In this document: positions 9,001 through 15,000 of the stretch, piece by piece
How the letters are laid out: each line of letters starts with the position of its first letter
How positions within the stretch are numbered: position 1 is the first letter of the stretch
Origin: Escherichia phage ETEC-TG
DNA length: 64,000 nt
Strand: one strand, 5' to 3'
Sequence record: OR786310.1
Made by a program: the position numbers

Positions 9001-12000
9001 CCAACTTTTAGGAATGGTTGCAGCAAATGCAGAGCTTGCTTACTATGTTGAAAATTTTGATGAAGCTGTAATCTTTACAAAATAATCCTTGATCTAATCT
9101 CTTAAATAACTTATATTTAATGCGTAGGGCGGCAATGGTGCCGCCGATAATGAGGAAAGTAAAATGGAAACTATCGCTATTGTTACCGTAGAAAAACTGG
9201 TTGTTGGTGATGTATTCGCGTTAATGGTGCCTAACAGCAGCAAGCTGGGCGCTTATGAAGTAATGGATCATAAAAATGAATCATTTGGCGACGGTTGCAC
9301 AATGGCGGTAAAATCTTTAAAAGATGGAATCATCCGCCAGGCTAACTGGCACAAAGGGAATCAAGTCGGTTTAATATCAGCTAATTTCTTGCCAGAAGAG
9401 CAAACATTAGATCAACTATCAGGCGGTAAGACGTTAGCCGAACTACTGGAAACAGCGATCTAATCGACAAGGGGGCGGCAACGCCCCCCATTAAACGCAA
9501 TAGGAAGAGGATAGACACATGAAAAAGATGATCGCAGTAGTTGCCCTGGTTGTTGGTATTAACGCGCCTGTAATGGCGAAAGAGTTGCCAGAATCCATCA
9601 CGTTAACCGATATTAACGCCGTGAACCGGATCGGTGTTAATTATCGCCTATGCCTTGCCGCTAAAACTTTCCAGGACGGCACAACAGAGTACTACGGATT
9701 CGAGGGTGTCCGGTGCGGTGAGCTTGCACGCGACCTTAAGGAAGATCCAGACCTTGAGGCCATACCGATGACCGTAAACGGTAAAGCCCAGGTAAACCGC
9801 TAACCATGAGAAAGGTAATCATCACAATGGGGATCGTAGTAGCAACGCTGGCGCTTATTCCCTTCCTGGTTGAATATGTGCTGATTAATGTTGTCCTGGT
9901 AGTCAGTGACCTATTGGAAACGGTTGGCAACTGGTTTTAAAAATAAATAAACAGGACTTGTTTTTGTCCTGTTTTTTGTTATACTTATTGAACGGGCGGC
10001 ACTTGGGAGCAGGTGAAGATAATCACCGGAAGATTCCGCTATATATCGATAGCTAATACCTATCAAACAACAAAACATCAAAGAGATAAACTATCAAATC
10101 TTTACAATCCTACATATTGACCGATAAATCACAACAGTTTAATATTGTTTTCAGAGGTTAAAATATTCCCCAAACGAAAACAGGAAAAAGAAAATGAAAG
10201 AAGTCATGATCCTCAAAAAATCACCTATTTTACGTGGCGGTTTTATCGCTTACTCTGATGATCTGTTAATTGCAACAGTTGCAAAAATACTAAAATCAGA
10301 AGATGACAGTAAAAACGGCGTTTATCGTATCTGTTTCACCCGTGGAAAATTACAAGGTAAGATCGCTTATGCCTTTGACTTACAAGATGTAAACGATAAA
10401 ATATGCGCTGTTATTGATTATGCAAAATAGTTAATTTTCTTATTGACACCGGATCACGCTTGCATTATTATTTATCACGTAGGGCGAGCAATACAGCAAG
10501 CCCACAAAGAGGAAAATAAAATGAGCAAATCAGCAATTAAAGCACTTGAAAAAGCACAAGAAGTGATCGCAACGTCCACCACTGGCGCAAAGGTTAATCT
10601 CGTTGGTTATCTGACAGATGAAACTATCCGTAAAAATTGGCGTAATGCTGATTTACTGGCTTGCTTATTGATTAATAGTGTCGCTAATGCTTTCCAGTGT
10701 GAAACAGCCGAGAGCCTGGAGGAAAACTTGTTTGATAATATGGATCAAGCCATTGAAACCTATATACAATCAAACCTGGATAGCTGGAACAGTAAAACAT
10801 GGCCCGACAATTTACGCGATACAACTGATCAACTGATCCGCCTTGCTGTGATGGTTGAACGCGATAACGTTTACAACAGCACAAAGTAAGATTATACAAG
10901 GGCGCACCAAGCGCCCTTTAACGTAAAGAAATGTAAATAATGCGCTATCCCCTATTGACAGGGGATCGGCGTTATATTATATTTAACTCACTGGCAGCAA
11001 ACAACGAAACGAAACAAAGGATAACACTATGAACATTAAATCAAATAATCCAGCTTACTCCTTCGATAACGCTTTTTGTCACGGTAGCGCCGCCAAAGGC
11101 TTCGAAATCGATGGTAAATTGGTTATCGTGAACGTTGACGGGGAAGAGGTTGCAGTGTATCCGGTAAACGATGTTAAAAGCCGTTTACAATGCCGTATGG
11201 ATGTTACCGCATATCAGCTTGATCCGATCCGTGTAGTTGCCCTGGTATTAGAGGAAGAGATCAAAGCAATGCATCACAGTAATAAGTTTATTGGTGACGC
11301 GCAGGATAATATGAACGTTTGCCGCCATAAAGTTAATGAAGCACTGAAAGAATGCGGTTTTAAGGATCTGATGATCAAACGTGATGAAAAATTCCGCTTT
11401 CGTAATGACCTGGCAAACCGGATCTACTCAATCTATGAAGCGTTATAATTGACAACAAAACAAGGGCGCACCAAGCGCCCTTTCTTTTTGCCCGAACAAT
11501 GTTGATAGCTTTCGCCTATGAAAAACCGACACAGAACAAAATTGAATAAATCGCGGTATCGAGCTAATCAACCATTAAACGAATAACCATACACCCCAGG
11601 GCAACAGGCTGTTAGAGAGCTATTTATAGCGGTTAAAATCGATCAACAACCAACAACAAACCATCAAAAACATCCTTTTACCTCCTTTCTAGTGCAATGA
11701 TAACCATTATCATCTATACATGATTATATATGCAATGTAAGCGCATAATTATAATGTTGATAACAGTTCGCAACAACTAACCAACAAACAACATAAAACA
11801 ATAAGCAAACTAATCATAATCAAAGGAATAATAGCAAGATGATTGATAACAACAAACAATCAAACCATAATGAATACTAAGCAAGATAACGATAACACGA
11901 CAAAACAACCAACTAACGAACAATAACAAACGAAACCATTAAAATAATAACTATTAGCAAAATAGTGTCTGAATGAAATCATTACAAAACGAATCATTCC

Positions 12001-15000
12001 CAGGATCATCATTAGCACGCTATGCCGGACACATAGCGAGCTAATAATAAGCCAACTACACCCCAACAATCATAACCATCGGTGACGGTTATTTCTTGTT
12101 ATTGCGTAGCTTGCAATAATTGCAAGCGTAATGACGCTTACACTTATTGCGCTGGCTTATTATTAGCATTATATGTAATTACCAAGATCATAACATTAGC
12201 GCAATAACAATAATCATTGTAATGGTTACAATATGAAATCATTAGCATGGCAATAATTATTGGGGGCAATGGGAGGATGATTATCATCATTCCGATACAT
12301 TGCACACTATGCACATAATAGAATAAAAGTCAATAATTTTGGGGGCGAAATGTTACCGCCACGGGCGGGAATGTTGAGCATCTTCTCTTAAACGTAAATA
12401 AAATCAGAAAATTCTTGATTTATTCTGGCTTTTATGTTAATAAACGTTTAAATAATAATCATTCTCATATGAATAATAGTCTGCTTGTCATGAGCGGCAT
12501 TAGTTGACATTGTTCCGTCATATGATGAAGTTGCCAAACCATTGATAAATAAGTGTTTGTGTGATTTATAATCAAGTGGTCCACCTTGTCGCTATGTTGG
12601 CATGAGCCTTGCATAAGTCATTGAATACGAATGATAATTATTCTCATTCTCATGATATTTGGGAATTGTCGCTGCGTGGACCTGACGGCCCGAAAATTCG
12701 CGTTAAGCACTTCTTACGTATACGCCATGATTTTTGCCATATCATATTGATTCTATTAGATATTCTTGCCATGATTGCCATGAAACAGGGTGTCCCGAAA
12801 TAATCTCTCCCCGTAGATATTTTGGGTTACTTTTTATACAAGAGTGGGGTGTCAAAAATAATCGGTATATATAGGATAATTGATAGGAATCCCCTATGAT
12901 AATTCGATTGTAATTCCTTAAGATTGATCGTATGATGTTGGTGATTGATGATTGCCATGAAAGATGGCTAACGATGAGAGGAGATTATCATGCAAGAGAG
13001 TAAAAATGTTCCGTTGAGTAGTTTACGTCTAATGAAGTTTTACAAAGCTTGGCTTGCTGGTGAGGTAGAAGGTCACACAACGAGTGGTTTGTGTATATGT
13101 TTGATTAAGTATGTAGAGGGAACATACCCTGATGAACTGTTACCTCGTCTACAACAGGAGATGAAATCACAGTTTATTAGTGCAGGACTAGATTACAATT
13201 TCCCGTTTAATGAAGGTGGTTATGAGGAATACACCTTCGAACATAAAAAACATATTTGCCATAAAAACAAACATCGTATACAATGGGTGTTAGATAGAAT
13301 TCAGGATTATGAAGGAGAGAAAAATGACAAATAGTATTCCGTTGAGCAGTGCAACATTGCTTCGCTTCTACAAAGCATGGATTGCCAACTATCCTGCAAT
13401 GAATCGCACAACGAGTGGCTTATGCGGTTGTCTGGTAGATTATGTAGATGATTTTGTTGGTGAGACAACTAGAGAAGAAGATAGAAGATGGCGTGATCAT
13501 TTGTTAGATCGTTTGAAATATGAAATGAGGAAACAATTTACATGTGCAGGGTTGGACTACAATCTTCCGTTCAATGCGGATTGCATGGATTACCTTTCAG
13601 AGTGTATAAACTTGGCGTGTCATACCAACACGTTACGTCTTCAATGGGTGAAAGATCGCATTGAAGATGCAAATAATGCTTGCATTGAATAAAAATGTCT
13701 GTATGATAGTTTGCATACCGCGCATAACAGATAGCCAATGAGGAGATTGAAATGTCAAATATGAAAACTGTATCCTTGTATTTAGCTAACACTGATCGTG
13801 TGCACACCCTTGCTAATGCAAGTCGTGTACTCGTGCAGTTCCGAAACTTTAAGCCGTCCGTTGTGACAGGCAGTGAAACGTGTGTGATCGATTTCATCAA
13901 TGAATATTTCCACGGGAATCCTGTTGCTCGTCACTTCGTGGAGAATATGAAAGATGCATAACATGAAACGTATGAAAATTCGTATTGAGAATGATGGTGG
14001 TTATAAAGGATTGGCACATGCAAAATTTCCACTTGTGTTGGAAGCTACAGTGGAATACAGTGGGCTTGCTCATGTGCGATTCTCGAAGATGATGGAAGTG
14101 CAGGAGTGGTTTTGGGACGAGATAGATGCACGAGAAGGGGAAGATTATGTTTTCTTTCCTCACGAATATGAAATTGTCTATTAAAGGTTGTGTGCAATGA
14201 TCACACCACAACAGAACGAAGCAGCAATGGATCTTCTTGACAGTTTGTATTTCGATAATTGGTACTCTGAATGTGAATGGATGAATGTGCAAACTCTGAA
14301 AGAGAAGACGGAAGCGTTGATTACAGTAGATCAATTTCTTGCAGAGACAGAAAGAATGAATTATGATATGGCATCTCGCGCACGACGCGTTTCCATTTTC
14401 AATAAAATGTTAGCATTATGGGGAGGTAGAAAATGAGACAATTCACTATACTGGCAGCTTATGTGCAATGTGTTCACGATTATGTTAGTGCTCATACAGG
14501 TTTGCTGGAAGTTACCAGTAAAATTGAAGGTAATATGGGTACTGTCTGTGTGCAACATACTTTATCCAATGTGCCGTTTAAAGTGTTCACTGTTGTAGCT
14601 GCCGATTACAATCGTGTAGATGTGCGTTTCTTGGATCATAATTTTCGTAACGCACTAGATAATATCGAAGATTATCTTCCCGTGAAACCTTTGTCATTTC
14701 CACCGAGTTGTGCAAATAATGTAGTGACAAACCTTAATGAAAGGAATGTGGCTATGCACAAAAAAGTCCGTCAACTGAAAACGCTGATGGAAATGCAAGA
14801 AGAGATTGAAAAAGAACTAAAAGAAGATTTTGGTATGCTTCCAAAAGACGCTTTGAAATGGTATGATGAACTAGGAGGAGAAAGTTATGAATAAAGAAAC
14901 TACTGTATATTTAGTGACTAAGAACACCCCAGGCTGGAGCCAATGCAGTACTGTTCCTTACAAGATCTGTGCAACATTAGAACTAGCACAACGTGCAGAA

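Follow-up and report, generated by a model that had tools for sequence, protein, structure and literature searches.

Genomes of the subfamily Stephanstirmvirinae are said to end in direct terminal repeats (DTRs) generally (PMC12695924). In the record of phi92 (FR775895.2), a repeat of 343 bp is annotated as DTR-L (1-343) and DTR-R (148270-148612); the terminal repeat of Schickermooser has been published as 328 bp (PMC6563267), and PhageTerm gave a 342-bp repeat for BME3, a relative of phi92 (PMC12210895). These records and papers give only the coordinates or the length of the repeat. In the current study, we analyzed a non-coding region of Escherichia phage ETEC-TG, located at 11449-12989 of a 64-kb window (the whole stretch of DNA under analysis, to which all coordinates refer unless another record is named) that belongs to a Phapecoctavirus genome (phAPEC8-like myoviruses of the same subfamily, ca. 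150 kb). We found that this region contains a counterpart of the phi92, Schickermooser, and BME3 repeats, in the same genome position, of similar length, and with homologous edges (TGTTG|AGC and GCGTTA|AGCAC, where the bar marks the inferred cut). Our data suggest that the region is very probably the junction of both physical ends of the Phapecoctavirus chromosome, as it would appear in a circularized assembly or in a replicative concatemer, and it is best read as a packaging and end-processing region.

The assignment of the repeat comes from relatives. In the linear record of Schickermooser (MK373788), the first and last 329 bases are identical, and the left end of this repeat falls at position 12377 of our window and the right end at 12705, with about 94% identity continuing through both flanks. 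Mt1B1_P17 carries an exact 328-bp repeat with the same edges, and the annotated phi92 repeat has its edges at homologous positions. The records of WPEC1 and WPEC6 also terminate at the right-edge position, as does the linear record of Klebsiella phage phi1_175008, which ends at the homologous ...ATCGCGTT. Since the DTR of these relatives is homologous to 12377-12705, the window presumably comes from an assembly, circularly closed or permuted, that has collapsed both copies of the repeat into one. Read in this way, 11449-12376 would be the non-coding tail of the right arm, 12377-12705 the DTR itself, and 12706-12989 the leader of the first left-arm gene. A preliminary description of this DNA had offered a packaging site or the chromosome termini among several explanations for the region, and the position of the close relatives' DTR within the flagged stretch supports that suggestion.

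The two edges of the repeat have a motif in common, GTTR|AGC(A/C), in direct orientation, and on the plus strand of the region GTTRAGC occurs only at these two places. In every lineage examined, the sequence is (A/T)TGTTG|AGC(A/C) at the left edge and GCGTTA|AGCAC at the right one, and both motifs are conserved in Phapecoctavirus, phi92, the Wec phages, the KP13-26 group, and metagenomic relatives. In ETEC-TG the likeness of the edges is longer (left, GTTG AGCA TC TTCT CT TA AA CGTA; right, GTTA AGCA C TTCT TA CGTA). The left edge is preceded by a GC hairpin whose sequence varies, being CCGCC-ACG-GGCGG in ETEC-TG, ATCGC-GTA-GCGAT in phAPEC8, and CCACGC-TGAG-GCGTGG or GCCCAC-GAA-GTGGGC in Klebsiella phages, while its pairing is kept in 9 of the 11 left-edge units tested (-3.6 to -7.8 kcal/mol). 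The unit "hairpin + TGTTGAGCA" is found in tandem in some relatives, with two copies in tuntematon, muut, and KP2025 and three in KP13-26 and FKP3, and each of these copies of GC hairpin plus TGTTG|AGCA has a different hairpin sequence. At the start of the FKP3 record (L022 2600-2678, reverse complement), the right-hand part of the DTR is also met a second time, incompletely, about 480 bp beyond the first right edge; this copy stops 15 nt before the GCGTTA motif and is probably an assembly or trimming artefact.

The second line of evidence is a compact module of inverted repeats (H1 to H5), which sits 210 to 370 bp inside the right arm. The preliminary description had pointed to a cluster of CATTAGC-like iterons together with palindromes. 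The clustering is real: five forward copies of ATTAGC (starting at 11953, 12011, 12162, 12195, and 12241) and one inverted copy (12040) lie within 306 bp (11953-12246), where 0.17 would be expected from the rest of the window (Poisson P of about 3e-8). The 19-bp palindrome reported at 12109-12127 (H4) is likewise exact, and it is unique in the window (0.05 expected). Repeats and palindrome are thus both present, but they are better described as a nested inverted-repeat module with covariation than as iterons plus palindromes. The arms of H1 and H2 include three ATTAGC copies as well as the inverted one at 12040; the outer arms of H1 are two of the supposed iterons, and the copies at 12195 and 12241 lie outside the helices. 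In the Klebsiella-phage lineage, the zone corresponding to 12195-12246 is expanded to about nine copies of GGTATTATTAGC, an array that looks like a protein-binding repeat.

Pairing within the module was evaluated in an alignment of 17 distinct sequences from at least five lineages, IMG/VR and metagenome contigs included (an earlier version held 14 sequences). Across the 39 pairs tested, which comprise the inner part of H1 together with H2, H3, and H4, 98% of positions are paired and 12 pairs have changed on both sides; none of 500 column shuffles reached the observed values, and when the partners were slid by one to three columns as a control, pairing fell to 22 to 48%. H2 is Watson-Crick paired at 15 of 15 pairs in all 17 sequences, with four variants of its inner arm (AGCC/GGCT, ACGC/GCGT, CCGC/GCGG, and ACAC/GTGT). 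The inner 7 bp of H1 are also paired in 17 of 17, with compensatory changes at three pairs, and H3 is represented by at least six mutually compensated arm variants across lineages. The arms of H4 are invariant in the 17 sequences. H5 is kept in most lineages and is broken in the phi92-like phages, which have another hairpin inserted in its place. Covarying pairs pass directly from one Watson-Crick pair to another, and the few non-Watson-Crick exceptions, including those in H3, are almost all A.C on the plus strand, that is, G.T on the minus strand. Compared with shuffled sequences, the module folds far more stably as single-stranded DNA (z = -7.0 for the plus strand and -8.7 for the minus strand). 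In the cross-genus alignment the palindrome ranks as the most conserved part of the region (0.96 identity to other genera), followed by 12009-12048 and 12149-12168. A metagenome scan with the palindrome returned 25 matches, of which 6 were true homologues and the other 19 were unrelated to the element.

The extent of pairing, the compensatory changes, and the shuffle and slide controls together provide good evidence of selection for pairing, or at least for exact dyad symmetry, in this module. The folded molecule may be a cruciform in duplex DNA, single-stranded DNA, or RNA, as covariation is compatible with each of the three.

The whole region is widely conserved and devoid of genes. It is 92 to 97% identical over its full length to at least 54 phage records, and a gene-free stretch of 1.5 to 2 kb is found in the same place and behind the same terminator in more distant relatives too, namely, the Wec phages (about 77% identical), Justusliebigvirus (phi92, PATM, muut, and ECGD1), and a Klebsiella-phage lineage (KP13-26, FKP3, and phi1_175008). 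The earlier claim that there is no convincing open reading frame (ORF) holds for 11449-12989, which is flanked by a 139-amino-acid gene ending at 11448 and a 114-amino-acid gene starting at 12990. Only short ORFs are present, the longest encoding 69 amino acids on the minus strand from a TTG start; eight ORFs of the region gave no match in PHROGs, five of these eight gave none in Pfam either, and the annotations of phAPEC8, ESCO13, tuntematon, Schickermooser, and phi92 show no coding sequence over the region. Three flanking genes also had no Pfam match. Some records 90 to 95% identical to the region are labelled as phages of Campylobacter, Pseudomonas, or Acinetobacter (e.g., MG065650, "Campylobacter phage B15," and OR584014, "Pseudomonas phage PsgM04F"), which suggests mislabelled hosts or contaminating coliphages in the preparations.

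Fur-box-like sequences, which the preliminary description had also picked out, proved to be strongly enriched. Six loci match the Fur consensus GATAATGATAATCATTATC at 14 or more of 19 positions, against 0.25 +/- 0.49 in dinucleotide shuffles, with none of 300 shuffles reaching six. They are hexamer arrays of the GATAAT type, and a count made without reference to the Fur consensus returned AATAATAATC as the top repeated 10-mer in the region (8 loci) and AATGATAATC in phi92. Matches are 14 to 16/19 in ETEC-TG and up to 17/19 in relatives, and the sites occupy homologous positions across genera: the site at 11693 corresponds to AATGATAATCATTCTT in the phi92-like phages and to AATAATGATAATCAATCTC (16/19) in KP13-26, the site at 12448 to GTAAATGATAATCATTATC (17/19) in phi92, and the array at 12627-12651 to GATAATGATAATTATTCTC (17/19) in the Wec phages. 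Given the quality of these matches, binding of Fur at the predicted sites is likely. Within the DTR, the Fur-like sites adjoin invariant -35-like elements, TTGATT and TTGAAT. A second Fur-like cluster, GTAAATGATAATCATTCTC (16/19) and GCAAATGATAATGATTCGC (14/19), is found at 269-380, in a short gap between ORFs 128-322 and 400-618 and beside -35-like hexamers of the TTTACA type, so the motif also occurs away from the chromosome ends.

The strand asymmetry that first drew attention to this locus is weaker than was stated. The plus strand of 11560-12060 had been described as almost all A and C; its composition is A 45%, C 22%, T 21%, and G 12%, so that A+C amounts to 67%, and 80% A+C is reached in only one 100-nt bin (ca. 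11849-11948). This is nonetheless the most A+C-rich 500 bp of the window (0.666, against a mean of 0.507 and a standard deviation of 0.035). Three degenerate modules, each about 130 bp long, make up the tract and begin near 11625, 11752, and 11884 (direct-repeat families D1 and D2); in each module, GATAAC is followed by a CAA-rich run, and this in turn by an AT-rich box resembling a Fur site. Folded as a single strand, the tract has hardly any structure (-21.6 kcal/mol for 440 nt), for which its composition alone accounts (z = -0.7). The tract is 92 to 100% conserved in Phapecoctavirus and the Wec phages; in other genera the CAA runs are only 34 to 60% conserved and the A+C bias is only 55 to 62%. 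We treat it as a genus-specific spacer or binding array, and it is the least explained part of the region.

The features are collected in Table 1. The terminator of the last right-arm gene also scores on the minus strand (two-way, 11462-11482); the records of phAPEC8, Schickermooser, and PATM annotate it likewise, and the alignment shows it to be conserved. The inverted repeat TGATAG-N7-CTATGA just beyond it has a twin at 12881-12899 that is also conserved across genera, and the two copies thus bracket the entire non-coding region. In the left-arm leader, TTGCCAT(GA) occurs four times (12734, 12766, 12775, and 12952), two of these copies forming an exact 9-bp tandem (12766-12783); the repeats may represent an operator or else -35-like hexamers that overlap. 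The first two left-arm genes, 12990-13334 and 13309-13692, look like tandem paralogues: both products open with ...(V/I)PLSS..L..FYKAW(L/I)A... and share ...TTSGLC..., and neither has a Pfam match. At the other flank, rV5-like phages (Vequintavirus) have a 92 to 93% identical homologue of the last right-arm gene, followed by an ORF-poor stretch of 1 to 2 kb whose sequence is unrelated to the ETEC-TG region and which is without the palindrome; the loci concerned are the IMG/VR contigs L007 (4421-6750) and L008 and records of rV5-like phages. A search for relatives in IMG/VR through the upstream protein gave three loci, and two of these, being rV5-like with unrelated downstream sequence, were dropped from the alignment.

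Table 1. Features of the non-coding region of ETEC-TG (window coordinates), followed by the tandem left-edge units of relatives (coordinates of the loci named)
Feature	Position	Strand	Sequence and remarks
Intrinsic terminator	11462-11490	+	AAGGGCGC-loop-GCGCCCTT and T-run; ends last right-arm gene, 11029-11448
Inverted repeat	11503-11521	no strand	TGATAG-N7-CTATGA; direct-repeat family D7; conserved across genera
Conserved block	11551-11568	no strand	TCGCGGTATCGAGCTAAT, with inverted ATTAGC copy; identity 0.95 within genus, 0.86 to other genera
A-rich, G-poor tract	11560-12000	+	CAACAA-type runs
Fur-like site	11693-11711	no strand	TGCAATGATAACCATTATC (15/19); then inverted repeat TATGCAAT..GCATA at 11729-11747
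Hairpin H1	12011-12045	no strand	ATTAGCACGCTATG / CATAGCGAGCTAAT, 7-nt loop; repeat I7
Long-range inverted repeat H2	12040-12167	no strand	GCTAATAATAAGCCA (12040-12054) with TGGCTTATTATTAGC (12153-12167); repeat I2; encloses H3, H4, and H5
Hairpin H3	12072-12092	no strand	ATAACCATC-GGT-GACGGTTAT
Palindrome H4	12109-12127	no strand	GCTTGCAATAATTGCAAGC; perfect, 19 bp
Small hairpin H5	12124-12139	no strand	AAGCGT-AATG-ACGCTT; overlaps 3' arm of H4; repeat I10
ATTAGC copies and Fur-like site	12195-12246	+	ATTAGC at 12195 and 12241; AATAACAATAATCATTGTA at 12203-12221
Left DTR edge	12356-12379	+	GC hairpin CCGCC-ACG-GGCGG, then GAATGTTG|AGC; inferred cut 12376/12377
DTR, single copy	12377-12705	no strand	Homology to terminal repeats of relatives
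Left-hand elements in DTR	12413-12466	+	Cross-genus invariant TCTTGATT (-35-like TTGATT), then Fur-like box TTAAATAATAATCATTCTC at 12448-12466
Right-hand elements in DTR	12619-12659	+	Invariant CATTGAAT, Fur-like hexamer array at 12627-12651 (up to 16/19), invariant TGATATTTG
Right DTR edge	12702-12708	+	GCGTTA|AGCAC; inferred cut 12705/12706
Leader of first left-arm gene	12706-12989	+	Conserved block 12849-12899 with twin inverted repeat; ribosome-binding site GAGAGGAG (12976-12983); start codon 12990
Tandem units, tuntematon	L003 3924-3990		
Tandem units, muut	L006 3093-3125		
Tandem units, KP13-26	L013 4003-4145		
Tandem units, FKP3	L022 1709-1850		
Tandem units, KP2025	L024 1641-1712		

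If the region is the joined pair of chromosome ends, one can envisage how it might work. The terminase, or a nuclease working with it, would recognize the concatemer junction and cut or nick at both GTTR|AGC sites, and the 329 bp between them would be copied, such that packaged chromosomes carry the DTR at both ends. On the right-arm side, the ATTAGC/hairpin module could serve as a recognition (pac-like) element or as a structure used during duplication of the DTR, with the A-rich, G-poor tract acting as a genus-specific spacer that would be unstructured when single-stranded. The Fur-like sites in and beside the DTR may be operators for host Fur, or for a protein of the same specificity, acting on transcription from the incoming end. 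Packaging of T7 and T3 starts from the right-arm side; if it did so here, the left end would be packaged last and injected first, bringing with it the DTR, the putative Fur-like operators, and the small genes from 12990 onward.

Several points weigh against this reading. For ETEC-TG itself the DTR is assigned by homology to relatives. The roles suggested for the hairpin module, the ATTAGC copies, and the Fur-like boxes derive from position, conservation, and covariation, and compensatory change in short palindromes may also be explained by template-switch mutation or by the co-evolving half-sites of a dimeric protein. We considered the left-edge GC hairpin as a required feature and rejected it: the hairpin is missing in most phi92-like phages, and there is none at the right edge, so it is not essential. 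Nor did transcription signals fall into place. A sigma-70 promoter scan of the region returned 16 sites against 11.2 +/- 2.8 expected, which is no enrichment, and detected no terminator besides the known one; promoters placed by hand in the DTR were rejected, as no good -35 paired with a good -10 at legal spacing across genera.

The alternative that comes closest concerns the same Fur-like boxes. The region may be a transcription-control hub at the incoming end, where the boxes and the TTGCCATGA repeats act as operators gating early promoters, the inverted repeats are operator palindromes for dimeric regulators, and the two cut motifs are the only packaging signals. As an account of the whole region we regard this as possible, if somewhat doubtful. 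The enrichment of the Fur-like sites, their conserved homologous positions, and their near-consensus form in relatives would fit it, as would the invariant TTGATT and TTGAAT beside them in the DTR, the second cluster at 269-380 in another intergenic gap, and the fact that the first left-arm genes begin 285 bp past the DTR. However, the conserved -35-like hexamers come without a good -10, and the promoter scan shows no excess. The six or more arm variants of H3 among close relatives are hard to account for by a co-evolving protein half-site and easier by a hairpin, and the hairpin module lies on the right arm, downstream of the terminator and far from gene starts. For the DTR and left-arm leader taken separately, a regulatory hub built of the Fur-like boxes and TTGCCATGA repeats is plausible.

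A replication origin, which the preliminary description had named among its suggestions, and a structured RNA, which it had also thought possible in the form of a CAA-rich non-coding RNA, could each coexist with a terminal function. As an origin, the ATTAGC copies would be initiator-binding iterons and the palindromes and A-rich tract an unwinding or priming zone; in a variant, the region would signal initiation on a single strand and determine the point near the right end at which lagging-strand priming stops. A repeated short motif and a hairpin cluster do lie beside a low-stability, strand-asymmetric tract, the module is strongly conserved, and initiation signals of the G4 and phiX174 type work by hairpin clusters on single-stranded DNA. 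Nevertheless, we consider an origin unlikely. No DnaA box (TTWTNCACA) is present in 11449-12989, against six in the whole window, and Chi, IHF, and GATC sites in the region are absent or not enriched (GATC is in mild excess genome-wide, with 322 copies in the window against about 225 predicted from base composition). The ATTAGC copies are spaced at 58, 29, 122, 33, and 46 bp in mixed orientation and are therefore not helically phased iterons. The cumulative GC skew, which covers 64 of about 150 kb, has its maximum at ca. 31 kb, where gene orientation flips, and shows only a small local dip at 10 to 12 kb. No initiator gene is adjacent, the flanking genes encoding small proteins without a Pfam match, and the location of the element at the chromosome ends is already explained by the DTR. 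The suggestion of a classical DnaA- or iteron-type origin thus finds no signature here. The RNA alternative has the plus strand forming a CAA-rich unstructured leader with hairpins, perhaps an Hfq sponge through A-A-N repeats, or the GU-rich minus strand forming a transcript that ends at the two-way terminator at 11462-11482. Covariation supports base pairing, the terminator scores on both strands, the non-Watson-Crick cells (mostly plus-strand A.C) would be G.U in a minus-strand RNA, and the minus strand folds better than the plus strand (-45.7 against -36.9 kcal/mol). On the other hand, a search of 9000-15000 on both strands against Rfam (E <= 1) gave no match, and neither strand yielded a conserved promoter; on the minus strand the best candidate, 12333-12306, was rejected on the grounds that it lacks conservation in phAPEC8. 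Conservation of the CAA runs between genera is poor, and direct Watson-Crick switches with practically no plus-strand G.U intermediates fit DNA palindromes at least equally well. The covariation pattern is also expected of DNA hairpins or palindromes and so does not show the existence of an RNA, which we hold to be very unlikely.

A DTR at this location is already known for the group, and features broadly of this kind are what a specialist would anticipate in a terminal or packaging region. The literature searched yielded nothing on non-coding features in Phapecoctavirus. It likewise contained no account of the cut motif common to both edges, of the hairpin module, of the ATTAGC repeats, or of the conserved boxes resembling Fur sites; in the literature examined, no transcriptome data for the subfamily were met. 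With the ends joined as we propose, an odd non-coding region becomes a map of the chromosome ends, with a repeat, cut motifs, and a candidate recognition module. This may be of practical use: phAPEC8-, phi92-, and Wec-like phages have a broad host range and are widely isolated for therapy, many GenBank records of the group begin at arbitrary points, and curators could orient genomes and annotate repeats from sequence alone by looking for the invariant palindrome and the edge motifs GTTG|AGC and GTTA|AGC. The making of short exact repeats by terminases is understood in very few phages besides T7 and T3, and mutagenesis now has a defined target in the hairpin module supported by covariation. The conservation of the Fur-like boxes gives a hint, open to testing, that host iron regulation is read or manipulated by a virulent phage. 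One speculative possibility, to which we give little credence at present, is that the ends of these virulent coliphages are organized around host Fur together with a structure-guided end-processing signal made up of the hairpin module and GTTR|AGC. Lying in and beside the terminal repeat, the Fur-like array would occur in two copies on each virion chromosome, and replication would multiply it. If the proposal were true, the array would make the first transcription from the incoming end iron responsive, or would titrate Fur and derepress host iron uptake for the benefit of the phage, and the hairpin module with GTTR|AGC would be an end-processing signal not described for any terminase.

Known systems offer partial parallels. 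The Fur-like sites resemble Escherichia coli Fur boxes, and the multicopy sites by which Fur is titrated, in their 14 to 16/19 matches and their hexamer arrays of the GATAAT type. In temperate phages a Fur box lies upstream of stx1. The only study of coliphage Fur boxes in the literature searched describes them upstream of temperate-phage cargo genes, such as the sit operon (PMC6969025), whereas ETEC-TG, a virulent phage, has its sites, where binding is only predicted, within and next to the terminal repeat and not over a recognizable promoter. The module also recalls G4 ori-c and primosome sites of the phiX174 type, being a compact, conserved hairpin cluster of about 150 nt beside sequence that is unstructured as a single strand, although this is an analogy only.

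The packaging systems come nearer. The pac site of P1 has several copies of the hexamer TGATCA/G, clustered near the terminase cleavage site as the ATTAGC copies are near the inferred cut in ETEC-TG. However, P1, which uses headful packaging from pac, is without an exact DTR; there are Dam sites in its hexamers and none in ATTAGC, and the hexamers of ETEC-TG form the arms of inverted repeats at 130 to 420 bp from the cut. The concatemer junction of T7 and T3 resembles that of ETEC-TG in being non-coding, in holding a short exact DTR, and in having short repeated motifs and sequence able to form hairpins on the right-arm side of this repeat; pacB reportedly lies on that side, with repeat arrays beside the repeat and a hairpin intermediate. 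Maturation in these phages starts at the concatemer junction (PMC3276506). We noticed no sequence resemblance to T7, without a T7 alignment, and ETEC-TG is a 150-kb myovirus. The T7 mechanism relies on pausing of the phage RNA polymerase at the junction. In ETEC-TG, the module on the right-arm side of the repeat is one of nested, covarying inverted repeats.

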